Virus record (IMG/VR): IMGVR_UViG_3300043429_000467
Direction: 5' to 3' (one strand)
DNA: 64,000 bases
From: a virus
Positions 10,584 to 62,304 of the stretch are shown here, piece after piece (the first letter of the stretch is position 1; every line of letters begins with the position of its first letter). Under the pieces are notes generated by a model. It saw nothing but the letters and a program-made list of their open reading frames with translations, did no database searches and was not told the origin of the DNA. Both the position numbers and the translations under genes were made by a program.

Positions 10584-10592
10584 AATTTTCCC

Positions 10593-47845: not shown

Positions 47846-48119
47846 TTAATAATTCCTCAAAAGAGTATCTTGCATAATTTAGTAGCATGATACCGTTATC
47901 TGTTTCACCGTGTAATTTACTTATATGGACAGCTTCTGCCATTGCAGGCTCTTCATGCTTGAATATAAAACAATCTCCAAACATTTGCAAGAGTATTTCT
48001 CTATTCATCTCGAAGTTATTTGTTAAATCATCATATCGACCAAACAAGTTGGTATATTGATTTGAGTAAGCAACTCGAAGTCCATCTTTAGTTATTAGTA
48101 TATATATTCCTGTTTCCAT
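47820..48119 (-). CDS. Small GIY-YIG-like domain protein (99 aa)
   Basis: GIYILITKDGLRVAYSNQ...FGRY...E...N fits the GIY-x10-Y(I/V)G...R...E...N spacing. Confidence 0.35.
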   Translation of the reverse strand: METGIYILITKDGLRVAYSNQYTNLFGRYDDLTNNFEMNREILLQMFGDCFIFKHEEPAMAEAVHISKLHGETDNGIMLLNYARYSFEELLNGNKTSDA

Positions 48120-48201
48120 TTGATTTTTCTTAATTTATTCGTATTCGAGAAAATATTAACATAAATAAGTATATTAGTCAACTATAGATTGAGATATTAA
48201 T

Positions 48202-48480
48202 ATGGAACAATTCTTTAAATTAGTCGCAGACGTTGGATTTCCTATAGCGGCCGCATGTGGTGCTGGATACTTTGTATTCTTAACACTTAAGTTTATTCTT
48301 GAAGGTGTTACAGGTGGTGTTAAAAGTATGGCAGGAATTATTATTGCACTTGATAAACGAGTAGCAACTATGAACCACGACGTACTACGTATCGATACTA
48401 AAGTAAGTCATGCATTAGGTATTCCACCTGATTTAGATAGAATATCACGAGCAGAACAATCTGACGCTAGACGAGACTAA
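48202..48480 (+). CDS. Small membrane protein, paralog A (92 aa)
   Basis: N-terminal TM helix FPIAAACGAGYFVFL, shared with the adjacent paralog. Confidence 0.4.
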   Translation: MEQFFKLVADVGFPIAAACGAGYFVFLTLKFILEGVTGGVKSMAGIIIALDKRVATMNHDVLRIDTKVSHALGIPPDLDRISRAEQSDARRD

Positions 48481-48481
48481 T

Positions 48482-48739
48482 ATGGATATAGTAGAATTAA
48501 TTAATAAATACGGGTTCCCAATTGTTGCCGCTGGTGGTCTAGGTTACTTTGTTTACTACGTTTGGAAATGGGTAACTGAAGAAATTGAACCAGTTATTGG
48601 AGATTCTAAAAAAGTTTTGGTTGATTTGATTGACCGTATCAGAATGCTTGATAATGATTTAATCAGATTAACACAGAAAGTTAATACATTCTTAGCCATT
48701 GAAGATGCTAAGAAAAGGGATAGGAATAATAAGCAATAG
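48482..48739 (+). CDS. Small membrane protein, paralog B (85 aa)
   Basis: FPIVAAGGLGYFVYYVW TM helix, paralogous to 48202-48480. Confidence 0.4.
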   Translation: MDIVELINKYGFPIVAAGGLGYFVYYVWKWVTEEIEPVIGDSKKVLVDLIDRIRMLDNDLIRLTQKVNTFLAIEDAKKRDRNNKQ

Positions 48740-48871
48740 AATCTTATCAAGGGGTAACACCGAGATTCTACAAGTTGTCAAGTAGTTTGTCAAGAGAAAT
48801 TTAAAAATATTGTAAATAATTAGTAACATCATGGTTTAGTTGATTGATTTGAATTACGGAACTGAGCCAAA

Positions 48872-49312
48872 ATGAAAATATTAATATTTGCTATATGTCT
48901 ATTACTATGTGGTAGTGCATATGCTACCGAATTAGTGCACGAGTTTTTTTCACCAGCCTTTTCAGGTAATGGTTATTCAACTCATATATTAACCATTGAG
49001 CAAATTGAGTCTCAGCGTAAACAAAAAATTAAAGATGAACAGAAAGCGGCTGAGACTAAAGCTGAATTAGCCGCTAAACAAACAAATCTTGCTAAGTTTT
49101 TAGTGAATGTTGAGTCTAGAATATATGCTCAATTATCTAAGCAACTTGCAGATGAAATGTTTGCCGAAGGTGGTGCTGATTCCGGTGAAATGAATTTTCA
49201 AGGAACTAACATATCATGGTACAAAACAGGAAGTGATGTAACCTTAACTATTCTTGAAGATAACGGTAATAGAACCGAAGTTACTGTGCCGATAGCAGGA
49301 TTCTCATTTTAA
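48872..49312 (+). CDS. csgF: CsgF-like curli assembly protein (secreted)
   Basis: Signal peptide, then ELVHEFFSPAFSGNGYSTHILT, which parallels the E. coli CsgF N-terminus [22 protein letters not shown]. Stop overlaps the csgG start (TAATG). Confidence 0.55.
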   Translation: MKILIFAICLLLCGSAYATELVHEFFSPAFSGNGYSTHILTIEQIESQRKQKIKDEQKAAETKAELAAKQTNLAKFLVNVESRIYAQLSKQLADEMFAEGGADSGEMNFQGTNISWYKTGSDVTLTILEDNGNRTEVTVPIAGFSF

Positions 49313-50091
49313 TGATTCGTTTATTGATACTAATATTCGTTTTGTCAGGATGTGCTAACGTTCATATGAATGCGGCAAAAGAAGAACCTGTCAAGATAGA
49401 AGCTAGAAAAAAGATTGTTGATGCTTTACCTGAATTGGATGGACCACCGATTCCTATCGCAGTGTATTCGTTCGCAGATAAGACAGGTCAAAAGAAGTCA
49501 TCAGATAATCTGGCATTGTTTAGTACCGCAGTAACGCAAGGTGCAGAAGTGTTTCTAATCAAAGCGTTACAAGATAGTAAGAATTGGTTTAAAGTAGTAG
49601 AAAGGGTGGGACTTGATAATCTTATTAAAGAAAGACAGTTGATAAGAAATCAAAGAGAAGTATATGAAGGTAAAGAAGCAAAGCCATTAAAACCAATGAT
49701 GGTTGCTGGTGTAATGATAGAAGGAGGTATCATTGGATATGATACTAACATCAGGTCAGGTGGTAATGGTGCTAGATTATTAGGTATTGGTGTTTCACAG
49801 CAATATAGAGTAGATGAAATTGTAATCTCTATTAGATTGGTGAATGTCAATTCGGGTGAAGTAATGTTAACTAACGCAGTATCCAAAACGATTTACAGTA
49901 CTCAACATAACTTAGGTATCATGAAGTTTGTTGATTCAGGTACTAAGTCGATTGAGTTTGAAAATGGAGTTGCACTTAATGAACCTACTACATTCGCAGT
50001 AAGAGTTGCGATTGAACAAGCGGTTTATGAATTGATAATAGATGGAGAAAAGAAAGGTTATTGGAAATTTAAAAAGGAAAAACAGCAATGA
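49312..50091 (+). CDS. csgG: CsgG curli secretion channel lipoprotein
   Basis: Lipobox LSGC. IPIAVYSFADKTGQ...FSTAVTQGAEVFLIKALQDS...ERVGLDNLIKERQLIR...MIEGGIIGYDTNIRSGGNGARLLGIGVSQQYRVDEIVISIRLVNVNSGEV aligns along its length with E. coli CsgG (FVSVYNIQDETGQ...FSTAVPQSATAMLVTALKDS...ERQGLQNLLNERKIIR...MVEGSIIGYESNVKSGGVGARYFGIGADTQYQLDQIAVNLRVVNVSTGEI). Confidence 0.85.
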   Translation: MIRLLILIFVLSGCANVHMNAAKEEPVKIEARKKIVDALPELDGPPIPIAVYSFADKTGQKKSSDNLALFSTAVTQGAEVFLIKALQDSKNWFKVVERVGLDNLIKERQLIRNQREVYEGKEAKPLKPMMVAGVMIEGGIIGYDTNIRSGGNGARLLGIGVSQQYRVDEIVISIRLVNVNSGEVMLTNAVSKTIYSTQHNLGIMKFVDSGTKSIEFENGVALNEPTTFAVRVAIEQAVYELIIDGEKKGYWKFKKEKQQ

Positions 50092-50675
50092 AAAAAATAG
50101 CATTAATCTTTATGATGATAATGCTTAGTAATGTATATGCCGCAGAAATTTATATTGAACAGTCAGGAAGTAGTTCTACTGTCAATATAAATCAAGAAGG
50201 TATAGGTAATATTGTAGGTGATTCACTGAATCCGCTTTATATTGGCGGTGGTTCGAATAACGTTGATATCGACCAAATCGGTGATAATAACAACCTTCAA
50301 GGTGTTGTAAATGGTGCAGGAACAGCAACCACAGTAACAACTAATGGTTCAGGTAATATTCAAATTATTAATTGTGGTACAACAACATCAGCAGGATGTT
50401 CATCATCAGTAATCAAACAAGTAGTTACTGGAAGTGATAACACTATAACTCAAGATTTAGGTACTGGTGCTAATCATAACAGTGAGATTACGATTACTGG
50501 AAGTGATAACGCAGTGACTCATACTAGCACAAATGCTGGTGCAAGTACTGTAGATATTTCAGTGAGTGGTAATCAAAATACTGTGGGAGTAACACAAAGT
50601 GGACTTACAGCGAAAACTGTATCAGTTAGTTCTACTGGTAATAGCAATAATATTACTATCAACCAGTCAGAATAG
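50088..50675 (+). CDS. Curlin-repeat (CsgA/CsgB-like) secreted amyloid subunit
   Basis: Signal peptide plus at least six imperfect repeats of the S-x5-Q-x-G-x-x-N type (TVNINQEGIGN, NVDIDQIGDNN, NTITQDLGTGAN, NTVGVTQSG, NNITINQS). Start overlaps the csgG stop. Confidence 0.65.
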   Translation: MKKIALIFMMIMLSNVYAAEIYIEQSGSSSTVNINQEGIGNIVGDSLNPLYIGGGSNNVDIDQIGDNNNLQGVVNGAGTATTVTTNGSGNIQIINCGTTTSAGCSSSVIKQVVTGSDNTITQDLGTGANHNSEITITGSDNAVTHTSTNAGASTVDISVSGNQNTVGVTQSGLTAKTVSVSSTGNSNNITINQSE

Positions 50676-51696
50676 TTATTCAGCAATCGGTAAAGTTTCA
50701 GAACAAACAGGTCCTACCGAGATTGTCCGACAAAGCAAATCAATAGAGAGTAAATTAAACTCTTCTATTGAGATGCTTGACACTGTGGTAACCGCAAAGT
50801 CTAAAGTGTTACTAACGTTCGAAGATGATACAACAGTTAAGATTACTGAACAATCTAAATTAATTATCGATGATTTTGTTTATGATAATAAAAAAGGTGC
50901 TGGTAAATTAGCATTAAAAGTTGCTTTGGGTACGGCAAGATATGCTTCAGGACAGATAGCTAAGAGTAACCCACAATCAGTTAACATACAGACACCAACA
51001 GCAACAATTGCAGTTCGTGGTACTGATTTTAGTATGACTGTAGATGAATTAGGTAGAAGTTTGGTGATGCTTTTACCTTCTTGTGATAAGAAAGCGTGTG
51101 TAACAGGTGCTATTGAAGTGAGTACCGATGCAGGTTCTGTTTTTATGAATCAAGCATATCAAACAACTGTAGTTGCTACACGAGACCAAGCACCAACTAA
51201 GCCTGTGATTGTTAATATAGACCAGGCAAATATTAATAACTTGTTGATTGTTGCACCTCCAAAACAAGTAGAAGAACAAAAGATACAGCAAGATAATAAA
51301 ACTGTATTAGATTATAACTTTTTAGATAGAGATTTATTAGAGTATAACAAACTAGATGAAGATGAATTAAAAAGGTTTAGTTTACTTGATATGAATTTTT
51401 TATCTTTTGATTTGTTACCAAATATTTTGGATGAATCGAATAGGTCATTAGCGGCAAGTCAAGAAGCAATGCTAGAAGAAAAAACTTTGCTTCCTGGATA
51501 TAATGAAGCATCAGGATTGAAATATGGTATAGATGAAAATGGTAAGTTGATTTTAACAAAGATTGCTAATCATACTGCACAAGTGACAGTTGATAAAGAG
51601 CATGATGTGATTGTTAGTATTACGCAGGATAGTTCACCACTGATACAAAAAGTGAATGGTGGTGGAACAACAACAATTAACATTAATCAGAAATAG
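50599..51696 (+). CDS. Secreted FecR-domain-like protein (365 aa)
   Basis: Signal peptide MDLQRKLYQLVLLVIAIILLSTSQNSYSA. Central TPTATIAVRGTDFSMTVDE resembles FecR/DUF4974-type beta-sandwich domains. 5' end overlaps the curlin gene by 77 nt in another frame. Confidence 0.4.
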   Translation: MDLQRKLYQLVLLVIAIILLSTSQNSYSAIGKVSEQTGPTEIVRQSKSIESKLNSSIEMLDTVVTAKSKVLLTFEDDTTVKITEQSKLIIDDFVYDNKKGAGKLALKVALGTARYASGQIAKSNPQSVNIQTPTATIAVRGTDFSMTVDELGRSLVMLLPSCDKKACVTGAIEVSTDAGSVFMNQAYQTTVVATRDQAPTKPVIVNIDQANINNLLIVAPPKQVEEQKIQQDNKTVLDYNFLDRDLLEYNKLDEDELKRFSLLDMNFLSFDLLPNILDESNRSLAASQEAMLEEKTLLPGYNEASGLKYGIDENGKLILTKIANHTAQVTVDKEHDVIVSITQDSSPLIQKVNGGGTTTININQK

Positions 51697-51704
51697 GAGT
51701 AAAA

Positions 51705-53699
51705 ATGCTAAAGCAATCTTTATTAACAGTGGCATTAATCGGTGTGTTTGGTACAGTTCAATCAGCACCTTTAGTATTAGAAGGCGATTACATCAAAATT
51801 GGTGTAAACGAAGTAGGTACATTAGGTTCTAATGGTAATACATCACCTGGTGTTCTATATGATAACACCGGCACAGGAACATTCAACACAGCATATGACT
51901 ACTTAACTCCTGGTTCACCATTCGAAGGATGGACTGTTCAATATAATGGAACAGAATCAGTGATGAATAACAATGCTCAATGGTCATCACCACAAATGAC
52001 AGGTACACTAACAAGTTACAATGGTGTTGCTTACAATGGTACAACATTCGACAATCGAGCAGTTTGGGAAGGTACTTCAGTAAACTTTGATTTGTTACAT
52101 GATGTTCGCTTCAATGATAATCAAAAGTTTGTGGATATTACATCAATATTGACAGCTAAAGTTGCAATGACTGATTTATACTTCGCAAGATATACAGACC
52201 CTGACGCACGTGCGGCCGCTGGTGACAGTTCTGCTACAACAAACACATTAGGATTCTCACCTATTCCAGTAACTCAAGTTGTATTTTCTGAAGCTTTAGT
52301 ATCTAGATATGCACTTGGTTTATACTCAGCGGCACCTAACGTAGGCGCAGGTGTTAGTTCAGGTTGGTCAACAGACGCAACAACATATTACACCGGTGCA
52401 AATGATGGTAATGGTGACTATACGATAGGTTTAGGCTTCCACGTACCAACAGTAGCAATTGGTGACATCGTTACCTTTAATTATGCATACATCTTTGGAC
52501 CTAGCACATTATCTGCTGGTTCTACTGCTGTTACTTCAGGTGCTGGTGGTGGCGTTCCTGGTGAAGTTCCTGGTTGTGTGTCTGATTGTACATTACCACC
52601 TGACCCTAGTTCAACTCCTACATTAGTATCAACAGACGTTGAGTTATCTAGTGTATCTGTAGTTCATAGAGGTGATACTGATACTGCAATCGAATACGAC
52701 TATGCAACATCAAAAGGTTCTAAAGTATTAGCTGTAAATCAAACTACAACTACAACTTTAACAACTCCAGTAACAACTACAGTAGCTTCTACTTCAACTA
52801 CAGTTGAAACATATAGTGATTCATCAGTAGTTCGTACAGTTGGTGCAACTACAACGACATCAAGTACAGTTAATGACGTAACAGAATCAGAATATGATAC
52901 TGCATTCTCAACAAGAATTGACCAATTTGATAGATTGTCAGCATCAAATGAAATGTACAATAGACAGTTAAATAGTAATATCATGGATAGATTTGTAGCA
53001 GGTCAAACTGGTGCTTATTTAAACATCGATAGTCAAACTAGCAATACACAAGATACCTATAAACAAAAAGCAAATCGTTTTGGTGTTGGAGTAGACAAGT
53101 CTATTACTGATAATTTGAATGTAGGTTTTCAATACAATAACATTTCATCAAGATTATCTGGAACTAATGCAGGTGGACGTTTAGATAAAAATCATGTTGG
53201 TGCATATGCTGTATACACTAAAAACAATTGGGTGTTTGTAAACGATATTGGTTTCTCATATAACGATTACAAAACAAATCACAGTTTACCTGAATTGAAT
53301 GCAACAAATAGTTCAAGTGCTAATGGATATGACTTATGGGTTAGCGGTAGAGCATATACTCCATCACTAAAAGGATTCAGACCATATGCTGGTATTAGAA
53401 TTGAAAACAACAACTTAGATTCAGCTAAAGATAAAGGTACTGAATTGACTGCTGTTAGTTATAGTAAAATTAATTCAACAAATACAACAGGTGAATATGG
53501 TATCAGATACGATTATCAATACAAAAAAGTTAACTTGTTAGCTGAAGTTGGTTCTAATTCTGATAATATCAAACTATACAAAGCAGGTATTAACTTTATT
53601 CCAAATGAAAAAGTTATTGGTGGTGTATCATTTACGCAACAAGAATATGATAATATCAAGAATGATGTGATTTCAGCTAATATAAAAGTTAATTTCTAA
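51705..53699 (+). CDS. Autotransporter-like outer-membrane protein (passenger, Thr-rich linker, C-terminal beta-barrel)
   Basis: Signal peptide; Thr-rich linker TTTTLTTPVTTTVASTSTT; C-terminal alternating-hydrophobic strands ending ...ISANIKVNF (aromatic terminal residue typical of OMP barrels). Confidence 0.5.
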   Translation: MLKQSLLTVALIGVFGTVQSAPLVLEGDYIKIGVNEVGTLGSNGNTSPGVLYDNTGTGTFNTAYDYLTPGSPFEGWTVQYNGTESVMNNNAQWSSPQMTGTLTSYNGVAYNGTTFDNRAVWEGTSVNFDLLHDVRFNDNQKFVDITSILTAKVAMTDLYFARYTDPDARAAAGDSSATTNTLGFSPIPVTQVVFSEALVSRYALGLYSAAPNVGAGVSSGWSTDATTYYTGANDGNGDYTIGLGFHVPTVAIGDIVTFNYAYIFGPSTLSAGSTAVTSGAGGGVPGEVPGCVSDCTLPPDPSSTPTLVSTDVELSSVSVVHRGDTDTAIEYDYATSKGSKVLAVNQTTTTTLTTPVTTTVASTSTTVETYSDSSVVRTVGATTTTSSTVNDVTESEYDTAFSTRIDQFDRLSASNEMYNRQLNSNIMDRFVAGQTGAYLNIDSQTSNTQDTYKQKANRFGVGVDKSITDNLNVGFQYNNISSRLSGTNAGGRLDKNHVGAYAVYTKNNWVFVNDIGFSYNDYKTNHSLPELNATNSSSANGYDLWVSGRAYTPSLKGFRPYAGIRIENNNLDSAKDKGTELTAVSYSKINSTNTTGEYGIRYDYQYKKVNLLAEVGSNSDNIKLYKAGINFIPNEKVIGGVSFTQQEYDNIKNDVISANIKVNF

Positions 53700-53723
53700 T
53701 TTTTAACGACTAAATAAGTAATC

Positions 53724-55742
53724 ATGAAAAAATTACTTAATCCATGGTTAGCGTTAATAACGTTAACTTTATTAGTAGTAATCAGATTGGCAGACTTCAG
53801 TTTTATCGAGTCTGTCAGATTGCGATATTTTGACACATTAATTACAAGTGAATCTGTAAAGGTTTCTGAACAAATTCACGTTGTAAATATAGATGATAAG
53901 TCCATAGAAAAGTATGGACAATTTCCGTTTCCTAGAGGTGATTATGCGAGCATTATTGATTCTTTGTATGACCGTGGCGCTGGGCTGGTTGTTTTTAACT
54001 TGTTTCTACCTGATAGTGATAGGTTTGGACAAGATGGTAGACTTACTTCTACCCTTAACAAACACCCTGTAGTATTCCCACAAGCTGGTTCTACTGATAA
54101 ACAAAAAGCTATACCATTTAGACCTGGTGTTTCTGAGATTGGAACACCAGCTTCTAATTTTGCAGTATCTTATCCAAGTATTTTAACTAACATAAAACAA
54201 ATTAATGAAAATGCCGCTGGCATTGGAGTAGTGAATGTATTACCTGAAATTGATGGTGTTGTCCGTCGTGTACCTATGGTCGTCTCAAGCAATGGCGTAT
54301 TGTTTCCCTCAATCACACTTGAAACTTTGCGAGTTGCTTCCGGAGACCCAAGTTTCCAAGTCAAGTCAACAGATTACGGTATCGAGGCCGTCAGAATACC
54401 TAGCTTCAGAAAAGTTGAAACTGACTCTTTCGGACGAGTTTGGATTGACTGGTCCACTAAGCCTACCGAACACAGTCTTGTTGATTTACCCAAGTCCTTT
54501 GATGGGACAATCGTCATTGTTGGACTCAGTGCTAAAGGACTCAACAATCCTGTCGCAACAGCAAGAGGAGAGGTCTATCCGCATTATTTACAGGCAAGCG
54601 TTCTAGATACACTTGTATCAGGTAAAAATATTAGTAGACCTGACTGGTCAAATGGTGTAGAATTATTATTGACAGTTATTCTGTCTGTGATATCTATATT
54701 ATTAACTAGGTGGAAATATGGCTTTATTGCTTTTCTTGCTATCATTGCTGGTGTTGTGGGTGCTTCTAAAGGTGCTTTTGTTTACTATTCGTATCTTCTT
54801 GATTGTATTTTTCCTGTGTTTTGCTTGGGTATTGTTTATTTACATGTGTATACAGTTAAGTTCGTAAGCGAATTAAATCAAAAACTTCAAATCAAAAAAC
54901 AATTTGGCACATATCTGTCGCCAGCACTTGTTGAAAAACTTCAAAAGAATCCTGAATTATTAAGACTTGGTGGTGAGTCTCGTGAACTATCTATTATGTT
55001 CACCGATGTTAGAGGCTTCACTACAATCTCAGAACACTATGGTAAAGATGTTCAAGGATTAACTCAAATTATGAATCGCTACATGACAGCGATGACCGCA
55101 AAGATTATTGAGAACAACGGAACACTGGATAAATACATTGGTGATGCTCAGATGGCTTTCTGGAATGCACCACTTGATGAGCCTAACCACGCTAAATTGG
55201 CATTGAAAACGGCTCTAGAAATGATGGAGAGTTTAGATGCGTTTAATAAAGAGATTCAAAAAGAGGGTATTCCGGCGTTTGGTATGGGACTCGGGATTAA
55301 TACTGGCACTGTTGTCGTTGGTAATATGGGTTCTAGCCAACGCTTTGATTACACCTGCTTAGGTGATGCTGTTAACTTAGCGTCACGTTTAGAAGGACAA
55401 TCGAAACCTTATGGTGTTAAAATCATATTAGGTTCGTTAACTGCTGAACAAGTTAAAGATGAATATCCAGTTGTTGAGTTAGATTGTATTGCTGTTAAAG
55501 GTAAAACAGAAGGTGTTAAGATTTATACTCCTTGTGTTTATCAAGAAGAGCATTATAAGTTACACAAAAAATATCTAAAATCATACTATGATGGTATTTG
55601 GGATTCAGCAATTTTCTTTGCTAAAGATTTAGAGATTAATGGTCCTACAGAATTACGTCAATATTATCATAACATGATAGAGAGAATGCTTGAAGGTAAA
55701 CCTGAAGATTGGGATGGTACGTATAGAGCAACTAGCAAGTAA
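53724..55742 (+). CDS. CHASE2 sensor-domain class III adenylate/guanylate cyclase (membrane-bound)
   Basis: N-terminal TM, periplasmic CHASE2-like region, 3-4 TM helices, then a cyclase homology domain (FTDVRGFTTISE...KYIGDAQMAFWNAP...GINTGTVVVGNMGS...YTCLGDAVNLASRLE) with both metal-binding Asp residues. Confidence 0.8.
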   Translation: MKKLLNPWLALITLTLLVVIRLADFSFIESVRLRYFDTLITSESVKVSEQIHVVNIDDKSIEKYGQFPFPRGDYASIIDSLYDRGAGLVVFNLFLPDSDRFGQDGRLTSTLNKHPVVFPQAGSTDKQKAIPFRPGVSEIGTPASNFAVSYPSILTNIKQINENAAGIGVVNVLPEIDGVVRRVPMVVSSNGVLFPSITLETLRVASGDPSFQVKSTDYGIEAVRIPSFRKVETDSFGRVWIDWSTKPTEHSLVDLPKSFDGTIVIVGLSAKGLNNPVATARGEVYPHYLQASVLDTLVSGKNISRPDWSNGVELLLTVILSVISILLTRWKYGFIAFLAIIAGVVGASKGAFVYYSYLLDCIFPVFCLGIVYLHVYTVKFVSELNQKLQIKKQFGTYLSPALVEKLQKNPELLRLGGESRELSIMFTDVRGFTTISEHYGKDVQGLTQIMNRYMTAMTAKIIENNGTLDKYIGDAQMAFWNAPLDEPNHAKLALKTALEMMESLDAFNKEIQKEGIPAFGMGLGINTGTVVVGNMGSSQRFDYTCLGDAVNLASRLEGQSKPYGVKIILGSLTAEQVKDEYPVVELDCIAVKGKTEGVKIYTPCVYQEEHYKLHKKYLKSYYDGIWDSAIFFAKDLEINGPTELRQYYHNMIERMLEGKPEDWDGTYRATSK

Positions 55743-55790
55743 TTTGCATATCACGCAAATTTAAATATGATTTTTTGCGTCAAGTGCAAA

Positions 55791-56042
55791 TTACTTGTCA
55801 TATCTTGAGTTATATATATTATGGTGGTCATCATAATTTTTTCTATATTCAAACTCTTTATCAGTCAAACAAAATTTACCTTGTTTTATTTCAGATAGAT
55901 ATTTTTTTAATCTTTTTTGTCTGTCATCAATTATAAATTTAGCCATACCTTGTTCTTGAAACATATTTATTTGATTAATTGAATTTTTAATATCAAATAG
56001 TATTTCTTCTTTATATCGAAGAGGTTTCTTTCTATATTCCAT
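55791..56042 (-). CDS. Small hypothetical protein (83 aa)
   Basis: Intact ORF. Confidence 0.25.
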   Translation of the reverse strand: MEYRKKPLRYKEEILFDIKNSINQINMFQEQGMAKFIIDDRQKRLKKYLSEIKQGKFCLTDKEFEYRKNYDDHHNIYNSRYDK

Positions 56043-56251: not shown

Positions 56252-56274
56252 ATTAATCTTTCAATTGGTGGGCC

Positions 56275-56352
56275 CCGTGGGATTCGAACCCACTGTCTAT
56301 CGGTTATGAGCCGATTGCTTATACCAGATTTAAGCTTGAGGCCCGAATATGG
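56275..56352 (-). tRNA. tRNA-Met or Ile2 (anticodon CAU)
   Basis: Hand-folded cloverleaf: CCA encoded; T-arm GTGGG/attcgaa/CCCAC on the plus strand; anticodon loop ctCATaa. Confidence 0.6.
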
Positions 56353-56358
56353 AGCGTC

Positions 56359-56433
56359 CTGCGGGAATCGAACCCGCCTCTTCAGCTTGGAAGGCTGTAA
56401 TAATACCACTATACCAAGAACGCATAACGGATG
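56359..56433 (-). tRNA. tRNA-Gly (UCC)
   Basis: Cloverleaf with T-arm GCGGG/aatcgaa/CCCGC; anticodon loop ctTCCaa. Confidence 0.6.
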
Positions 56434-56700
56434 AAAAAGCAAGTAAAAGACGGGACAATGTACATTAGAAGGGCTATGCCACTAAACTCTAAGACAATCA
56501 ACAAACCACAATAATCAAAACCTGCATATTAGTTAGAAACAAAACACAAAGTCGTCGTTTATAATACTAACACACGCAGAACGATTTCAGGTCGTTTTGG
56601 ATTTGGCGTCCATACTGGAGAGAAATTAATCTCATCTTAGTCAATTCTCATCTCTTTTTCATGCCGAGTAGATTTTTTGAAGAAAACCTACCAGAAAAAC

Positions 56701-57267
56701 TTAAAGAATACCTGCTTTAGTTAGTGTTTCCACTACGTTATCAGGTAACTCAATCTCAGTCTTAATATTCAATTCAAGAATCTTATCTTGAATTTTTTGC
56801 TTCTCTTTTTTGAATGTAGAAACATTCTTTTTAGCAATAGAAATATTACCTTCAGTACATACGGTAGTAGTTACTTCATCGGCTCTACCATATACACTTC
56901 TAGTAGTATCTGTATTGTTTTTAATCTTATCAAGCTTACCTTCGACAATATTAATAGCTGTCGCTGGTGCTGAAGTTGCTATGTTTTGATGTAGATGAAT
57001 AGTCTTTTCAATCAATGCAACATCACTTAACAAATCATTAATTTGATTTGCGTTTGCTTTACCAACTAGTTTTCTAATCGTATACAAACTAACATACAAA
57101 TCATTATTTACCTCAAAAGCTGTTAAATAATCTTTGTTTGCTTTATCAAACTTTTCAGATACATTTTCAAACTCATTGAATGTAACCATATTGTTTAGCT
57201 GATTATTCTTAATAGTATCAAGAATAGTTTGTTGTAATGCATTTGCTTTTCTAAGCGTAATTTTCAT
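56701..57267 (-). CDS. Hypothetical protein (188 aa) inside the tRNA region
   Basis: Intact ORF; predicted helical/coiled. Confidence 0.3.
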   Translation of the reverse strand: MKITLRKANALQQTILDTIKNNQLNNMVTFNEFENVSEKFDKANKDYLTAFEVNNDLYVSLYTIRKLVGKANANQINDLLSDVALIEKTIHLHQNIATSAPATAINIVEGKLDKIKNNTDTTRSVYGRADEVTTTVCTEGNISIAKKNVSTFKKEKQKIQDKILELNIKTEIELPDNVVETLTKAGIL

Positions 57268-57275
57268 AATAACTC

Positions 57276-57461
57276 CTAATGTGCTAAAATCTTAAAGCAC
57301 TTAAATTTAATAACTTTTGTTGTACCTGAAGCCATCTTCTTAGCTTCTTCACCTGCGGCAACACATTCTTGTTGTGAAAAGAAACCTGGTACATTAGTTA
57401 ATGCCATCGAATCAGTATCACTCATCATACCTGCATGTGCAAACAATAATAAAACCCACAT
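57276..57461 (-). CDS. Small secreted hypothetical protein (61 aa)
   Basis: Signal-peptide-like N-terminus. Confidence 0.25.
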   Translation of the reverse strand: MWVLLLFAHAGMMSDTDSMALTNVPGFFSQQECVAAGEEAKKMASGTTKVIKFKCFKILAH

Positions 57462-57483
57462 AATAAATCTCCAATAATAAGAA

Positions 57484-57559
57484 TGGTGTCCCCGGAGAGA
57501 ATCGAACTCCCGTATAATGCTTTAGAAGAGCACTGCGTCATCCACTACGCTACGAGGAC
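57484..57559 (-). tRNA. tRNA-Arg (UCU)
   Basis: Cloverleaf folded by hand; anticodon loop ctTCTaa. Confidence 0.55.
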
Positions 57560-57594
57560 ATTTGAAAGCATATTACTATACTTTACTTTAAATG

Positions 57595-58155
57595 TCAAAT
57601 ATATCTACTATGTTTAGGTAGTTTAGACTTTAAGTATTCCATTTGGTCAGCAACTACGTTTCTATTCTGTAGAATAAAGTGTTCCCATCTACAAGGTCTG
57701 TAAGGTAAAAACAACAATAACATATTAGCTTCTTCAGGTGTTCTATCTGCTTTCTTAGAGTTACAGTGCTTACATGAAGACACTGAGTTTTCCCAAGCAT
57801 TAGAACCACCACGACTTCTTGGATGTACGTGGTCTCTAGTCAAATCTTTTGATTCAAAGAATAGTCCACAGTAAGCACATAAGTTATGGTCTCGTCTGAA
57901 TAACAAAAAGTTACCGTGAGCATTCACAGTTTCTTTAGTATGCAATCTTCGAGTTTCACCTCTTACTGAGATGATAGACTTGATACTGATTTGAGATTGT
58001 AAACCATTCTTTTGATAGCCGCCATGAAACACTTGAAACTCAGTACCTAAGTCCCAAACAACTTTATCTGAGGCGTAGTAATGCACCGCTTCTTCGGGCA
58101 TCAGCCACTTGAAGGGATTACCTGCAATATCTAGTCCTAGTATACGTGCTTCCAT
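57595..58155 (-). CDS. HNH homing-type endonuclease
   Basis: CAYCGLFF...DHVHPRSRGGSNAWENSVSSCKHCNSKK (HNH motif with flanking Cys pairs). Inserted between tRNA genes. Confidence 0.75.
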   Translation of the reverse strand: MEARILGLDIAGNPFKWLMPEEAVHYYASDKVVWDLGTEFQVFHGGYQKNGLQSQISIKSIISVRGETRRLHTKETVNAHGNFLLFRRDHNLCAYCGLFFESKDLTRDHVHPRSRGGSNAWENSVSSCKHCNSKKADRTPEEANMLLLFLPYRPCRWEHFILQNRNVVADQMEYLKSKLPKHSRYI

Positions 58156-58204
58156 GATAGTCTCAAAAAAATAATTTAGATGTTATATGTATATATCTTT
58201 AAAA

Positions 58205-58281
58205 TTGGTGCGGAAGGAGGGAGTCGAACCCTCAAAACTCGGATTTTAAGTCCGATACGTATGCCAATTCCGTCACATCCG
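58205..58281 (-). tRNA. tRNA with anticodon UAA (Leu-type anticodon) but short 5-nt variable region
   Basis: Clean T-arm GAGGG/agtcgaa/CCCTC, 5-bp anticodon stem TCGGA/TCCGA, loop ctTAAaa. Total 77 nt, class I architecture. Confidence 0.5.
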
Positions 58282-58361
58282 CTTATTAAATTTAGAACGT
58301 TGCTGTTTCTGAACCCTAGTAGTAACAATAAAGTTAAAAAATTACAGCAACGCTCTAAAAC

Positions 58362-58438
58362 TGGTAGAAGTAGTGAGATTCGAACTCACGATAGGTTGCG
58401 TATGAAGCAACTGCATTAAGCCACTATGCTACACTTCT
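58362..58438 (-). tRNA. tRNA-Met or Ile2 (CAU), second copy
   Basis: T-arm GTGAG/attcgaa/CTCAC; anticodon stem GTTGC/GCAAC; loop ttCATac. Confidence 0.6.
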
Positions 58439-58650
58439 GTTAAAACTTTTTGCTTCATAAATTGGCAGTATGCTTTATAATCTTCATGCATTGCCTTTTG
58501 TATTAACTCATCAGTGCTTTTATAAAAAATATGTCCAACTAGTTTTAATCTAATAGACTCATATAAACAGTCCATCTTCAATTCTTCAGATGGAGGATAT
58601 TCTTTATAAAACTCTTCATAAGTTAACATAATAATCCTTTGGGGTGTCAT
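58429..58650 (-). CDS. Small hypothetical protein (73 aa)
   Basis: Intact ORF between tRNAs. Confidence 0.25.
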   Translation of the reverse strand: MTPQRIIMLTYEEFYKEYPPSEELKMDCLYESIRLKLVGHIFYKSTDELIQKAMHEDYKAYCQFMKQKVLTEV

Positions 58651-58718
58651 ACGAGATTTGAACTCGTGCTATAACATTCACAGTGTTAGGTGCTAACCAC
58701 TACACTAATGACACCATT
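58640..58718 (-). tRNA. tRNA-His (GUG)
   Basis: Anticodon loop ctGTGaa; discriminator C and extra 5' G(-1), consistent with His identity. Confidence 0.65.
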
Positions 58719-58721
58719 AAA

Positions 58722-58795
58722 TGGCTCCGGTGGAGGGAGTCGAACCCCCGCCAAGAGGTTTGGAGTCTCTTGTGCTACCGTAACACTTCACCGGA
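58722..58795 (-). tRNA. tRNA-Trp (CCA)
   Basis: Anticodon loop ctCCAaa; acceptor stem perfectly complementary. Confidence 0.55.
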
Positions 58796-58802
58796 ATAAA
58801 AC

Positions 58803-58879
58803 TGGAGGATAGAGTGAGATTCGAACTCACGAACCACTGCTTTGCAGGCAGGTACCTTAGACCACTCGGTCATCTATCC
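58803..58879 (-). tRNA. tRNA-Cys (GCA)
   Basis: T-arm GTGAG/attcgaa/CTCAC; anticodon loop ctGCAaa. Confidence 0.55.
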
Positions 58880-59101
58880 TTAACAACAACCTGCATCTGG
58901 AAAAATAAATACTTTTTCTTCAGCAGAATCATCAGTATTATATTCAATAAATGTGTTAATTTCTTCTTGTGCAAATGTAACACCTTCATTCTCTGCTAAA
59001 AACGTAGCATCAGCTAGATTATCAGCAACTACAACTAACCCGCCATCTGAATGGTAATTGTCAGTTAGATTAGCAATCCTTGTCCAAATAAAAACTTTCA
59101 T
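58880..59101 (-). CDS. Small hypothetical protein (73 aa)
   Basis: Intact ORF. Confidence 0.25.
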   Translation of the reverse strand: MKVFIWTRIANLTDNYHSDGGLVVVADNLADATFLAENEGVTFAQEEINTFIEYNTDDSAEEKVFIFPDAGCC

Positions 59102-59104
59102 AAT

Positions 59105-59521
59105 CTACTCCAATGGAAATAATTCTTTAAATTTTGCAGTCATTACATCAATTAAAACTGGATGACGATAATCGTAGTCATCTTCAATTTCTAAATTAAT
59201 TACTTGTTTAAAATCAAAATCAAATGTCCAATTATCCATATCATTAAACATTTTGTTTTGCATTGTATTGATATGTAATTGTTGAATACTATCCATCACT
59301 AGAATAACATCAGCCCAAATAATCAAAGCTTCAGTCACAGGAATAATCGCATATTCTGCACTAGTTCCTGCACATCTAGTATTGAAGTTCCATGGTTCTG
59401 AACTAAGAATATGTGCCGCTGTAGGACTTCTTAGACATCCTGCTGAACATACAGTCAATACTTTCTTATGCTTTCCTTGATAAGCATTGAATATCACCCC
59501 AAGTTGGTTTCTTTTTAGCAT
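59105..59521 (-). CDS. Low-molecular-weight phosphotyrosine phosphatase / ArsC-family fold protein (tentative)
   Basis: VLTVCSAGCLRSPTAAHIL resembles the P-loop CX5R(S/T) signature of the LMW-PTP family. Confidence 0.4.
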   Translation of the reverse strand: MLKRNQLGVIFNAYQGKHKKVLTVCSAGCLRSPTAAHILSSEPWNFNTRCAGTSAEYAIIPVTEALIIWADVILVMDSIQQLHINTMQNKMFNDMDNWTFDFDFKQVINLEIEDDYDYRHPVLIDVMTAKFKELFPLE

Positions 59522-59690
59522 TCTTACTTTCCTTAATAAAAATCTTTAGTGTTCTACCTTCATCTTGAAGACTAAACTCTAATGATTCTACATTCCAATT
59601 AGTATAACTACGACCTTTACCATCAATCACTTCAACTCTAGTGACATCATAATAAGGCTCTTCAAATCTATTAATATGCGGATTGGTCAT
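59466..59690 (-). CDS. Small hypothetical protein (74 aa; 5' end overlaps neighbour)
   Basis: ORF overlapping the phosphatase-like gene by 56 nt; true start uncertain. Confidence 0.2.
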   Translation of the reverse strand: MTNPHINRFEEPYYDVTRVEVIDGKGRSYTNWNVESLEFSLQDEGRTLKIFIKESKNAKKKPTWGDIQCLSRKA

Positions 59691-60243
59691 GGAATGTAAA
59701 TCCTTTATTCTTAAATTTTTGTAATCGCCACTCTTTAATAAATTTGATATCAGTATTATAGATTAGCTTCTTATTCATACATGCGTCATACTGTTCTCGT
59801 GAGATAAACAACTTATCTTGCATCAACAAATAGTAAGGTTTGCAATGAACAAAGTCAAAATGATTTCGAACATCATTAGGATGTCCTGCAAACGTGAAGA
59901 TGAATGAGTCATCAGTCTTCATGGTAATCGCATTAGCGGTAATCATTTTACCATTATTATCTGCGTGTTCCATGTAATTGATATTGACTTCTTTAATCTC
60001 ATCATCATAATTCTTTTCTATGTGTTCTTTAAATGTTACGGCAGAATCTTGGTCATAGAAATAAAAGTCCCAATCTTTAGGTATTTCGCCCCTTAATAGA
60101 GAACCGATTGCACCACCTGAAAGATACACGGCATCATTTTCATACAGCATTTTCCACCAATCAAAATTCTTCAATGCTTCCATATGGAATTTAATGGTGT
60201 CTTTTACATCTTTAATTTTATTCTTTTCGTTTTCAGTAAACAT
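59671..60243 (-). CDS. Polymerase-beta-type nucleotidyltransferase-fold protein (tentative)
   Basis: LSGGAIGSLLRGEIPKDWDFYFYD fits a G[SG]-x8-DxD NTase signature. Confidence 0.35.
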   Translation of the reverse strand: MFTENEKNKIKDVKDTIKFHMEALKNFDWWKMLYENDAVYLSGGAIGSLLRGEIPKDWDFYFYDQDSAVTFKEHIEKNYDDEIKEVNINYMEHADNNGKMITANAITMKTDDSFIFTFAGHPNDVRNHFDFVHCKPYYLLMQDKLFISREQYDACMNKKLIYNTDIKFIKEWRLQKFKNKGFTFHDQSAY

Positions 60244-60307
60244 ACAATCACCTAATCATAATATAAAATAATCATACATCAAAATTAATTTAATGTAAAG
60301 CATTATT

Positions 60308-60383
60308 TGGTAGGACCCCTCGGAATCGAACCGAGTCCTCAGCGTCTTCAGCGCCACGTACTGACCACATATACGTGAGTCCT
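60308..60383 (-). tRNA. tRNA-Phe (GAA)
   Basis: T-arm CTCGG/aatcgaa/CCGAG; anticodon loop ctGAAga; stem has two G-U pairs. Confidence 0.55.
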
Positions 60384-60385
60384 AT

Positions 60386-60461
60386 TGGTACTCGAAGAGA
60401 GAATCGAACTCTCATTTGACGATTATCGGTCGTCTGTTCTAAACCGTTGAACTATTCGAGC
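60386..60461 (-). tRNA. tRNA-Ile (GAU)
   Basis: T-arm GAGAG/aatcgaa/CTCTC; anticodon stem GACGA/TCGTC; loop ccGATaa. Confidence 0.6.
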
Positions 60462-60462
60462 A

Positions 60463-60963
60463 TTAATAAACAACATTATAGCAACAATTAAGTACTACTC
60501 TCTCAATATTGCTATTCTTAACTTGTTCTACTTTATGATAATACCAAGGCATCATATTAACAAAAATACATGTTCCATATTTTGGATATACTGTGAACAC
60601 TTCTTCTTGAGCATTCTTGAAACTGATAGAACCACCAGTTTCTTCGTTCATATCATTAAAGTATACTAAAGCAAACAGATTCCAACCTTCTCTTAAATCG
60701 TTGTGCCAATCACAACTAGTTGGTTCTGTACCTTTCCATAATTCTGTTTTTCCAACATCTACAGATTGAAACGACTTGTTTAATATTGTAACAAGCTTTT
60801 CATTAATAGATTTTATAGCGTTATCTAAATTGTCATCATCTTTAGGTTCATATACATTGTTTAAATGTTCGTCTTTCCATATGATTAATTTTAAATCAAC
60901 ATCCGATAACAACTCAGAAATGTCGATTTGATGATAACCTTTTTCTATTAAATCATTTATCAT
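60463..60963 (-). CDS. 2OG-Fe(II) oxygenase-like protein (tentative)
   Basis: WHNDLREG (HxD) and downstream YYHKVE...ERVV, with spacing compatible with a prolyl-hydroxylase-type facial triad. Confidence 0.35.
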   Translation of the reverse strand: MINDLIEKGYHQIDISELLSDVDLKLIIWKDEHLNNVYEPKDDDNLDNAIKSINEKLVTILNKSFQSVDVGKTELWKGTEPTSCDWHNDLREGWNLFALVYFNDMNEETGGSISFKNAQEEVFTVYPKYGTCIFVNMMPWYYHKVEQVKNSNIERVVLNCCYNVVY

Positions 60964-60975
60964 AATCTTCCTTTA

Positions 60976-61051
60976 TTGGACCCCTCTGCAAGAATCGAAC
61001 TTGCATCATAACGTTCGTAGCGTTGTATTCTAATCCATTGAACTAAAAGGG
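60976..61051 (-). tRNA. tRNA-Arg (ACG)
   Basis: T-arm GCAAG/aatcgaa/CTTGC; anticodon loop ctACGaa. Confidence 0.5.
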
Positions 61052-61057
61052 GTAAAA

Positions 61058-61132
61058 CTGGCGACTCGTGGGGGAATCGAACCCCCGTATCCTACTAGAC
61101 AGGCAGGCATAATAACCATTATATCAACGAGT
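61058..61132 (-). tRNA. tRNA-Asp (GUC)
   Basis: T-arm GGGGG/aatcgaa/CCCCC; anticodon loop ctGTCta. Confidence 0.6.
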
Positions 61133-61183
61133 CAAAAAACTTTCAAGCAATTGTTTTCAGCAATCGATGAAAGCCGTGTTACA

Positions 61184-61258
61184 TGGTGCCCCGTGACGGA
61201 TTCGAACCGCCATAACCTGATTACAAAACAGGCATAATAGCCTTTATATGAACAGGGC
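61184..61258 (-). tRNA. tRNA-Thr (UGU)
   Basis: Anticodon loop ttTGTaa; acceptor with one G-U. Confidence 0.55.
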
Positions 61259-61263
61259 AAAAC

Positions 61264-61340
61264 TGGTACTCAGTGAAGGAATCGAACCTTCCTAAGCTAT
61301 CTTGTAAGGATAGTCTCTAGCCAATCGAGTCAACTGAGTA
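61264..61340 (-). tRNA. tRNA-Val (UAC)
   Basis: T-arm GAAGG/aatcgaa/CCTTC; anticodon stem CTATC/GATAG; loop ctTACaa. Confidence 0.55.
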
Positions 61341-61344
61341 TAAT

Positions 61345-61419
61345 TGGTGGAATAGGCGAGACTCGAACTCGCAACAGTCTGCTTGCAAAGCAGGTGAACT
61401 CCCATTGTTCTACTACCCC
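61345..61419 (-). tRNA. tRNA-Ala (UGC)
   Basis: Anticodon loop ttTGCaa; acceptor stem carries a G3-U70 pair, the Ala identity element. Confidence 0.6.
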
Positions 61420-61425
61420 AAAACT

Positions 61426-61500
61426 TGGTCTCTCAGGTAGGACTCGAACCTACATCGTCTACGCCCCAAACGTAGTGACCAACCTCTGGCCCACTGAGAG
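61426..61500 (-). tRNA. tRNA-Pro (UGG)
   Basis: Anticodon stem CTACG/CGTAG; loop ttTGGgg. Confidence 0.6.
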
Positions 61501-61507
61501 TTAAAAC

Positions 61508-61584
61508 TGGCTGTGTACCTAGGATTCGAACCTAGCGCATCTTGATTAACAGTCAAGCCTTCTCACCTAGAGAAGTCGTACACA
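61508..61584 (-). tRNA. tRNA-Asn (GUU)
   Basis: T-arm CTAGG/attcgaa/CCTAG; anticodon stem CTTGA/TCAAG; loop ctGTTaa; perfect acceptor. Confidence 0.65.
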
Positions 61585-61592
61585 ATAAAACT

Positions 61593-61669
61593 TGGTACCC
61601 TTAGAAGGATTCGAACCTTCAAATTTCTGTTTCTAAGACAGACTCCTTTACCAATTTGGACATAAGGGC
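61593..61669 (-). tRNA. tRNA with anticodon UAG (Leu-type anticodon) but short variable region
   Basis: T-arm GAAGG/attcgaa/CCTTC; anticodon stem TCTGT/ACAGA; loop ctTAGaa; 77 nt, class I architecture. Confidence 0.5.
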
Positions 61670-61677
61670 ATTAAACT

Positions 61678-61767
61678 TGGCGGAAGTTTAGGGAATCGAA
61701 CCCTCGACGATTACTCGTTCCTACTGTTTAGCAAACAGTGCTAGTTTCCCTGACTAGATAAACTTCC
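61678..61767 (-). tRNA. tRNA-Ser (GCU), class II with long variable arm
   Basis: 90 nt; anticodon stem ACTGT/ACAGT; loop ttGCTaa; ~17-nt variable arm. Confidence 0.6.
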
Positions 61768-61837
61768 ATATTGAGCGGTTTGCCGTACTCTCCTAACCTC
61801 GAATACATTATGTTACGGCTTTCTCTCAAACTAAAAC

Positions 61838-61928
61838 TGGCGGAGGGATGGCGGAATCGAACCCCTGGCAATCTCTTGCTCGCTCTGCTTTCAAAACAGA
61901 CGCACTATCCCCGAGTGCATAACCCTCC
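61838..61928 (-). tRNA. tRNA-Ser (UGA), class II
   Basis: ~90 nt; anticodon loop ttTGAaa; variable-arm hairpin GCAA/tctc/TTGC. Confidence 0.5.
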
Positions 61929-61935
61929 ATTACTG

Positions 61936-62013
61936 ATTTGTAGTCTAGGGAATCGAACCCTAATAAAATCTAGAATACGGTGTCAATCGACACTTATTAG
62001 TCCAACCCTACAA
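61936..62013 (-). tRNA. tRNA-like element, possibly degenerate (anticodon not resolved)
   Basis: Good T-arm TAGGG/aatcgaa/CCCTA and partial acceptor complementarity (tttgtag / ctacaaa), but no encoded CCA and no canonical anticodon arm; an internal hairpin GTGTC/aatc/GACAC is present. Confidence 0.3.
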
Positions 62014-62016
62014 AAC

Positions 62017-62093
62017 TGGCAGCCGTGGTGAGATTCGAACTCACTATGTACTAGCTTCAAAGACTAGTGCACTTCCTGTCGTGCGTCACGGCA
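62017..62093 (-). tRNA. tRNA-Gln (UUG)
   Basis: T-arm GTGAG/attcgaa/CTCAC; anticodon arm ACTAG(T)/ctTTGaa/(G)CTAGT with a 6th U-G pair closing a 7-nt loop (or a 9-nt loop alternative). Confidence 0.45.
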
Positions 62094-62101
62094 ATAAATC
62101 T

Positions 62102-62176
62102 TGGTGGGAGCACAGGGACTCGAACCCTGAATGATTGATTAAAAGTCAACTGTGATAACCATTTCACCATACTCCC
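62102..62176 (-). tRNA. tRNA-Lys (UUU)
   Basis: T-arm CAGGG/actcgaa/CCCTG; anticodon loop ctTTTaa. Confidence 0.6.
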
Positions 62177-62218
62177 AAAACTTGGCTCGTTTTTATAGAG
62201 GTGAACACTCCTCATGTT

Positions 62219-62304
62219 TGGTGAGTGTTGTAGGATTCGAACCTACTAAGCACGAGGCAACTGGGTTACAGCCAGCCGAGACACTCCAACGTCCCCGAAC
62301 ACTC
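62219..62304 (-). tRNA. tRNA-Tyr (GUA), class II
   Basis: 86 nt; T-arm GTAGG/attcgaa/CCTAC; anticodon loop ctGTAac; 13-nt variable arm; perfect 7-bp acceptor (gagtgtt / aacactc). Confidence 0.6.

Follow-up and report, generated by a model that had tools for sequence, protein, structure and literature searches.

A curli-type secretion cassette with a FecR-domain protein, an autotransporter and a CHASE2 adenylate cyclase in a divergent T4-like phage

Why should a T4-like phage carry genes of the curli-type export system, and what might they do in an infected cell? The question is raised by the virus record IMGVR_UViG_3300043429_000467 of IMG/VR, of which a stretch of 64,000 nucleotides (the window), part of the Joint Genome Institute (JGI) metagenome contig Ga0485304_000043 (91,891 bp), was analyzed here. 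An earlier note, made from the letters alone, had singled out three adjacent plus-strand genes as a csgF-like gene, csgG and a curlin-repeat gene. The coordinates it gave for the three are exact, but the unit is wider than the trio: 48202-55742 is a single plus-strand block of eight genes, with minus-strand genes on both sides, in which the curli-type genes are accompanied by genes for a FecR-domain protein, an autotransporter and a receptor adenylate cyclase. This kind of system has already been published and the window presents a new, divergent example of it with variant features; what is new is the distant phage lineage, the autotransporter in the slot of a second curlin gene, and the curlin-like repeat that ends the FecR-domain protein. 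The eight genes are:

48202..48480, plus strand: small single-pass membrane protein 1 (92 amino acids; phrog_18771, E 4.9e-35), a paralogue of the product of the next gene
48482..48739, plus strand: small single-pass membrane protein 2 (85 amino acids; phrog_18771, E 6.3e-33)
48872..49312, plus strand: CsgF-family protein (146 amino acids; signal peptide MKILIFAICLLLCGSAYA/TE; PF10614, E 2.6e-17; phrog_35372, E 1.1e-47)
49312..50091, plus strand: CsgG outer-membrane lipoprotein channel (259 amino acids; lipobox L-S-G-C at residues 11-14; PF03783, E 3.7e-52)
50088..50675, plus strand: secreted curlin-like subunit, predicted beta-solenoid (195 amino acids; about seven strand-turn-strand repeats; signal peptide ...SNVYA/AE)
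50599..51696, plus strand: periplasmic FecR-domain protein (365 amino acids; PF04773, E 1.3e-10, residues 61-150; phrog_37870, E 5.5e-93, residues 12-365)
51705..53699, plus strand: classical (type Va) autotransporter, by its structure model (664 amino acids; signal peptide, passenger, Thr-rich beta stalk, linker helix, 12-strand barrel)
53724..55742, plus strand: membrane receptor adenylate cyclase, with a periplasmic CHASE2 domain and a predicted class III cyclase domain (PF05226, E 3.9e-37; PF00211, E 1.5e-20; phrog_35576, E 4e-282)

The identity of the first two curli-type components is clear from family searches. CsgF scores 63.6 bits against its Pfam model (cut-off 25.8) and covers model positions 5-132 of 132 (128/132), while CsgG reaches 177.1 bits (cut-off 20.8); together with the curlin-repeat match described below, these significant matches agree with the assignments of the earlier note. 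The motifs it quoted are likewise present in the translations, namely the lipobox LSGC, DKTGQ, SGGNGAR and RLVNV in CsgG and F-x-x-P-x-F-x-G-N in CsgF, and CsgG does align along its whole length with E. coli CsgG (residues 3-256, E 4.6e-47; PDB 3x2r and others). The NCBIfam CsgG model gives 175.7 bits, below its enterobacterial equivalog cut-off of 505, and by these scores the phage CsgG is a family member and not an orthologue-grade match. In E. coli the N-terminal segment of CsgF plugs into the CsgG barrel; the motif F-x-x-P-x-F-x-G-x-G-x-S, which is at least 90% conserved across 52 non-redundant viral CsgFs, aligns with the E. coli CsgF N-terminus, and the phage CsgF thus appears to retain the CsgG-docking segment. 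A phmmer search of CsgF against PDB sequences gave spurious matches only. The csgF, csgG and curlin-like reading frames overlap by 1 nt and 4 nt, respectively, and are therefore translationally coupled.

The curlin assignment is the weak point by sequence and is supported by structure. With Pfam, a single repeat is matched by Curlin_rpt (PF07012) at 25.7 bits (cut-off 20.7, E 1.1e-5); the NCBIfam CsgA model gives only 22.6 bits (cut-off 160), phmmer against PDB sequences returned spurious matches only, and in hhalign the curlin alignment reached a probability of only 31% with E. coli CsgA. The protein is nevertheless predicted to be a secreted subunit of curlin repeats, and its model has the CsgA-type beta-solenoid. 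The earlier note had also entertained a virion-associated fiber; this is unlikely because the Sec signal peptide would export the subunit out of the cytoplasm, where virions assemble.

CsgG proteins 52-90% identical to that of the window are encoded on 59 IMG/VR viral contigs, with the neighboring genes conserved alongside (tblastn table). Among the viral loci in which the region could be assessed, the curlin-like gene and csgF are never missing (53 of 53 each), and the FecR-domain gene (48 of 48) and the cyclase gene (32 of 32) are just as constant. The presence of the curlin-like substrate gene in every assessable locus argues for secretion rather than a bare pore.

The same contigs bear on whether the island belongs to the phage at all. 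It is a strand-switched block with a GC skew opposite to that of its flanks, and homologues occur in metagenome-assembled genomes (MAGs) labeled with many bacterial taxa; hence it might be host DNA mis-assembled onto phage DNA. This explanation is effectively refuted: the identical island with the same flanks (RNase H, GroES and a 362-aa gene) was assembled independently from a second data set (SRR35180403), its GC content (0.31-0.39) agrees with that of the window (about 0.34), cultured phage genomes carry the cassette, and the 59 viral contigs have it flanked by phage genes. There is accordingly no sign of the chimeric join at 48-56 kb that the earlier note had considered. As for the bacterial labels, a scan for bacterial sources (one genome per species, with the viral CsgG profile) returned 13 loci (L064-L076), in which the full phage-type cassette was found only on short MAG contigs of unrelated taxa (labeled Polynucleobacter, Pelagibacter, Rhodobacteraceae, Pirellulales, Flavobacteriaceae, Legionellales and Cellvibrio), most likely phage sequences that were binned with bacteria in error, whereas the long, truly bacterial contigs hold only a canonical curli operon. 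The surroundings in the window are those of a T4-like phage, as the earlier note had recognized, with baseplate wedge, hub and tail-tube-cap proteins, RNA ligase, RNase H, gp32, a T4 baseplate protein and 24 tRNAs.

That no phage with a CsgF/CsgG/substrate set had been described, as the earlier note supposed, is contradicted by both sequence records and the literature. The cassette has been annotated in marine phage since 2013 (HTVC008M; Zhao 2013 annotation), and tblastn of CsgG against deposited phage genomes recovered Pelagibacter phage HTVC008M and four isolates of the Methylophilales (OM43) phage Melnitz, with 45-47% identity. In their loci, as in the window, two small open reading frames come first, followed in turn by the genes for CsgF and CsgG, those for a curlin-repeat and a FecR-domain protein, a variable gene and the adenylate cyclase gene. 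The CsgF/CsgG cluster of pelagimyophages was reported together with a proposal of 'sibling capture' (Zaragoza-Solas et al., 2020; PMC7029224), the Melnitz proteins were modeled and a pore for the timing of lysis was proposed (Buchholz et al., 2022; PMC9004378), and a module of CsgF, CsgG, CsgA/B, FecR, 'HK' and cyclase was described in podo- and myophages (Wittmers et al., 2022; PMC9599517), where the marine viral modules are expressed in metatranscriptomes and were found at all 65 GOV2.0 stations. Our literature search found no later experimental work on the phage curli cassette. The megablast search of 48000-56000 against 50,697 phage records gave no match, and therefore the phage of the window is not a deposited genome.

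How the curli-type genes are joined to the rest of the cassette is seen in the FecR-domain gene, which begins within the curlin-like gene. Its most likely start, judging from the nucleotide context, is GTG at 50599, with a GGGAG Shine-Dalgarno sequence 9 nt upstream read directly in the DNA, so that 50599-50675 is a 77-nt dual-coding overlap, in which the curlin frame specifies the last repeat and the +1 frame the FecR signal peptide. Related loci keep the overlapping open frame, which is about 80 nt long within the close clade and only some 30 nt long in Melnitz and HTVC008M. JGI's own gene call starts at 50773 and thereby loses the signal peptide, while the PHROG profile covers residues 12-365. 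Programmed frameshifting from the curlin frame into the FecR frame was set aside, as the +1 frame has its own Shine-Dalgarno sequence, GTG start and complete signal peptide. By translations and direct reading of the DNA, five of the eight cassette proteins have an N-terminal signal peptide or lipobox and the remaining three are membrane proteins; with the FecR-domain protein started at GTG 50599, all eight products are therefore exported or membrane proteins.

A true FecR combines a cytoplasmic anti-sigma domain at its N-terminus with a transmembrane segment and, in the periplasm, the FecR domain. In the window's protein PF04773 is the only match (residues 61-150) and lies behind a cleavable-type signal peptide, with neither the anti-sigma domain nor the transmembrane anchor; therefore, the published label 'iron-dependent regulator' is unsupported. 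By analogy with the bacterial gene pairs described below, its best interpretation is that of a periplasmic partner for the CHASE2 sensor. Its C-terminal part of about 55 residues (51529-51693), '...VIVSITQDSSPLIQKVNGGGTTTININQK', parallels the last repeat of the subunit, '...VGVTQSGLTAKTVSVSSTGNSNNITINQSE', and the pattern is conserved in 43 of 44 non-redundant FecR-domain homologues, including those of Melnitz and HTVC008M. In profile-profile comparison the tail can be aligned over its full length with the subunit's terminal repeats (hhalign score 25.6, E 6.4e-4, against 10.2 +/- 2.1 with a maximum of 16.5 in 100 column shuffles). Pfam Curlin_rpt gave no match even at E<=10 on the C-terminal tails of five FecR-domain proteins, so the tail evidence is suggestive only, and the likeness is confined to the subunit of the phage itself. 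With such a tail the FecR-domain protein might bind, cap or nucleate the subunit and so link the status of a fiber to the cyclase.

Class III cyclases rely for catalysis on Asp residues that bind metal, on a Lys and a Thr that specify adenine, and on an Asn and an Arg for the transition state. When the phage protein is aligned with solved adenylate cyclases, the motifs FTDVRGFT, DKYIGDA and DYTCLGDAVNLASRLE are visible in it, and its catalytic residues are thus intact; it is predicted to be a class III adenylate cyclase. Over 85-93% of its length it shares 31-35% identity with CHASE2 cyclases of Alphaproteobacteria, among them S. meliloti CyaK, and a FecR-domain gene adjoins the cyclase gene in both best-matching bacterial loci that were inspected (Paracoccus pAMI5 and an Ensifer plasmid). 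The same pairing is on record for S. meliloti, where cyaD1 (SMc02176) stands with smc02177 in the clr-cyaD1-smc02177 locus (PMC5498481), and for the Burkholderia BiofilmReg (biofilm-regulating) operon (PMC5192318). A Pycsar-like defense system was considered and rejected, as the PADLOC match to PycC reflects generic cyclase homology only.

The two small proteins at the head of the block have one hydrophobic segment each and match only phrog_18771, a family of unknown function. Homologues of the first stand before csgF in Melnitz and HTVC008M. Neither the 92- nor the 85-aa protein has a match to HisKA, HATPase_c or another histidine-kinase family at E<=0.1 in Pfam or NCBIfam. Some loci have the pair in inverted orientation, several kb downstream of the rest of the cassette.

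The gene between the FecR-domain protein and the cyclase is of a kind that goes unmentioned in the papers on the phage modules, in that the word 'autotransporter' is absent from PMC7029224, PMC9004378 and PMC9599517. An AlphaFold2 model of the 664-aa product (predicted local distance difference test score 83.7) shows a beta-rich passenger of about 260 aa and a C-terminal barrel that ends in Phe, and Foldseek retrieves the NalP translocator (E 1.8e-12, template modeling score 0.81) and also EstA, EspP, BrkA and Hbp (E 1.8e-12 to 1e-8). On the strength of this model the protein is a classical type Va autotransporter. The sequence searches are less telling: the protein itself has no Pfam match at E<=0.1, PF03797 is found in many of its 1,547 detectable homologues, the family profile finds only the EstA barrel among PDB sequences (E 0.012), and no relative of the passenger was detected in Pfam, NCBIfam or PDB sequences. 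In 17 of 61 viral loci a gene of this family stands no more than 10 kb from csgG. On a 163-kb T4-like contig (L077) it stands between csgF and csgG (9001-11043), and on a 338-kb contig (L079) it follows the FecR-domain gene (9001-11169). The autotransporter, whose family counts more than 1,500 homologues in metagenomes, is a recurrent, position-variable member of the cassette. The latter contig (JGI 3300071517; 338,665 bp, of jumbo-phage size) also has HSP70, HSP20 and ClpS genes, and its variant cassette consists of CsgF, a 340-aa CsgG, the FecR-domain gene and the autotransporter, with the CHASE2 cyclase 8 kb further on.

Taken together, the best explanation, and in our judgment a reasonably probable one, is that the cassette serves the export of a surface fiber from the infected cell and holds, as a separate part, a periplasm-sensing cyclic AMP (cAMP) module; from the sequences, amyloid fiber export by the infected cell is plausible. 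During infection, both CsgG-CsgF and the autotransporter would be placed in the outer membrane by the Sec, Lol and BAM machineries of the host. The curlin-like subunit would pass CsgG unfolded and, once outside, polymerize to a curli-like fiber on the infected cell's surface, and this might alter the cell surface such that cells aggregate, siblings are captured ('sibling capture') or competing phages are blocked. The FecR-domain protein and the CHASE2 cyclase would form a separate periplasm-to-cytoplasm signaling pair of alphaproteobacterial type, which would raise cAMP in the infected cell and would not act as an iron regulator. Export is supported by the invariable substrate gene, by the retained docking motif of CsgF and by the nearest cellular relatives, which lie in true curli operons.

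Several observations weigh against this explanation. The residues of the E. coli CsgG constriction are Y51, N55 and F56; the alignment sets ...KKSSDNLALFSTAV against ...FKPYPASNFSTAV at this site, such that the Phe is kept while the Asn and Tyr are not, and the Phe itself is kept in the window's clade but is Leu in the marine clade. The subunit has a pair of cysteines, C96 and C104 (50373-50399, in the loop NCGTTTSAGCSSS), which is invariant in 40 of 40 aligned homologues and lacks a counterpart in the cysteine-free E. coli CsgA; a disulfide between them, if they are oxidized in the periplasm, could hinder transit of the CsgG constriction of about 1 nm. No Pfam or NCBIfam match to CsgE, CsgC, CsgD or a recognizable CsgB was found in the eight cassette proteins; as the nearest alphaproteobacterial operon also does without CsgE, CsgC and CsgD, their absence is compatible with a working type VIII secretion system (T8SS). 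Finally, no clumping was seen in Melnitz-infected cells (PMC9004378), and no experiment on amyloid or fibers of any phage version is reported in PMC7029224, PMC9004378 or PMC9599517.

Other functions have been proposed for the channel. In one of them CsgG, with or without CsgF, is a gated pore, pinholin-like or secretin-like, that times lysis, and the curlin-like gene is irrelevant (Buchholz et al., 2022). Besides the structure models and synteny given for Melnitz (PMC9004378), the lack of the periplasmic gate CsgE would suit such a pore, and residues 2-29 of small membrane protein 2 are weakly like a holin family (phrog_4898, E 2.6e-4). However, CsgG is an outer-membrane lipoprotein and cannot depolarize the inner membrane, the synteny argument (thyX, tmRNA and a glutamine riboswitch upstream) fails in the window, where the flanks are RNase H, GroES and tRNAs, and both the constant company of a secreted curlin-like gene and the conserved docking motif of CsgF speak against it; we therefore consider a lysis pore quite improbable. 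We give still less credence to the suggestion that the channel takes up nutrients or cofactors into the infected cell, as discussed in two of the papers (Zaragoza-Solas et al., 2020, PMC7029224; Wittmers et al., 2022, PMC9599517), which appears very unlikely: a channel without CsgE may be ungated and permeable both ways, but uptake does not account for the autotransporter or for the fact that CsgF, the curlin-like subunit, FecR and the cyclase strictly occur together, and no link to iron is evident, with a FecR-domain protein that is free of the anti-sigma part and transmembrane segment.

Closer to fiber export is a surface structure that is not amyloid, in which the beta-solenoid and the autotransporter would act as adhesins or anchors in the manner of the Caulobacter holdfast proteins HfaA/HfaB/HfaD. 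The phage CsgG also matches HfaB in NCBIfam (46.5 bits), distant CsgG/HfaB-like genes occur in Brevundimonas phages, the beta-solenoid fold is common to many monomeric adhesins, the invariant, disulfide-capable cysteine pair is unlike CsgA, and an autotransporter lies within the cassette; even so, we rate this as unlikely. An elaboration of fiber export itself, which we would entertain as a speculative and on balance improbable idea, is a self-contained, self-monitoring surface-fiber system, as opposed to a curli operon taken over from a host and joined by regulators that have nothing to do with it, wherein the FecR tail would bind, cap or nucleate the subunit in the role of CsgB or CsgE and report the state of fiber or subunit to the CHASE2 cyclase, which would reset host cAMP, with the autotransporter of the window's lineage as a second surface anchor or adhesin and the whole spread beyond pelagiphages to distant T4-like phages and contigs above 300 kb.

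Phage-encoded curli-type secretion emerges as a real and widespread trait. The cassette is now on record from a T4-like lineage that stands well apart from the phages of SAR11 and OM43, at another genome position, and it can take up an autotransporter. The labels 'FecR' and 'HK' of the literature are probably misleading. The curlin-like tail of the FecR-domain protein offers a testable link between the fiber half and the cAMP-signaling half of the cassette.

The genomic setting gives some indications of how the cassette came to its place and when it might be expressed. It sits between RNase H/GroES and a cluster of 24 tRNAs, whereas in Melnitz and HTVC008M the position is between gp32 and the baseplate hub; as gp32 of the window (20611-21630, minus strand) is 27 kb from the cassette, the latter has moved as a unit. 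Two further features stand at its ends:

48161..48167, plus strand: ATAAATA, similar to the core of T4-type late promoters, 35 nt ahead of the first cassette gene (weak evidence)
56266-62910, minus strand: tRNA cluster, with 24 tRNAs by ARAGORN (56266-62452) and one at 62842-62910 by Rfam only

The heptamer is depleted in the window (21 copies against 37.8 +/- 5.8 expected), and other copies lie 22-30 nt upstream of a baseplate gene (14522-15751, minus strand) and of 21920-22447 (minus strand). The copy upstream of the cassette is a putative promoter, which hints weakly at late transcription. Scans for sigma-70 promoters and terminators did no better than chance, and Rfam over the window found tRNAs only, with neither a riboswitch nor a tmRNA close to the cassette. 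An HNH endonuclease gene (57595-58155) interrupts the tRNA cluster, and a gene for a 190-aa protein at 59671-60243 bears a PF26128 (Gad2) label precomputed in the contig record, which our Pfam scan did not reproduce. Elsewhere in the window, 26733-27449 (minus strand) encodes a 238-aa protein with a match to Pfam Acb3, an inhibitor of the cyclic-oligonucleotide-based antiphage signaling system (CBASS), at E 7.9e-26, a candidate anti-defense gene, and 31894-32784 (minus strand) encodes an SPFH/Band 7 domain protein (E 1.3e-14).

Among known systems the nearest is the T8SS module of pelagiphages and OM43 phages (HTVC008M, Melnitz, pelagimyophage MAGs and HTVC023P-type podophages). It shares its gene order with the window, every shared protein is homologous at 26-54% identity, and PHROG families built from carriers of this type match five gene families of the window. 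It differs in several respects: CsgG (45-47% to Melnitz and HTVC008M) and baseplate gp6 are only 40-47% identical to those of the pelagiphage carriers and nothing matches at the nucleotide level; the neighborhood of thyX, tmRNA and glutamine riboswitch is absent, with the cassette placed as described above; the second 'CsgA/B' gene is replaced in its slot by the 664-aa autotransporter; the curlin/FecR overlap is 77 nt, unlike in the pelagiphage modules; and the small upstream proteins, labeled 'HK' there, have counterparts without a kinase domain. The autotransporter itself shares the 12-strand C-terminal translocator and preceding helix of the type Va proteins NalP, EstA, EspP, BrkA and Hbp, but differs from them in being phage-encoded, embedded in a T8SS cassette and furnished with a passenger that has no detectable relative.

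Compared with the csgBAC-csgDEFG system of E. coli and Salmonella, the cassette is without CsgE, CsgC, CsgD and a recognizable CsgB, and its subunit has about seven repeats instead of five and the cysteine pair, and no Gly-rich, N22-like targeting segment. The bacterial FecR/CHASE2 pairs (S. meliloti, Burkholderia, Paracoccus pAMI5 and Ensifer) resemble the window in that a secreted FecR-domain gene lies beside a CHASE2 receptor, whereas they have no link to csgG or csgF, and the viral FecR-domain protein has the curlin-like C-terminal repeat. On the curli side, the truly bacterial matches of the scan involve CsgG only, with 44-45% identity, and come from an isolate scaffold of Nitratireductor soli and from two MAG contigs, one of Hyphomicrobiaceae and one of an unclassified alphaproteobacterium. 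The closest cellular CsgG found, that of N. soli ZZ-1 (44% identity), is encoded alongside a short csgF and two curlin-repeat genes, and this operon, like the window, is devoid of CsgE, CsgC and CsgD; unlike the window, it has no FecR-domain gene, CHASE2 cyclase, small membrane-protein pair or autotransporter. As the N. soli operon is without FecR and cyclase genes, the cassette seems, from these sequence comparisons, to have been fused from two modules of Alphaproteobacteria, of which one is a curli operon and the other a pair of FecR and CHASE2-cyclase genes, and such an origin agrees with the published phylogenies, which set the viral genes nearest to Alphaproteobacteria (PMC9599517).

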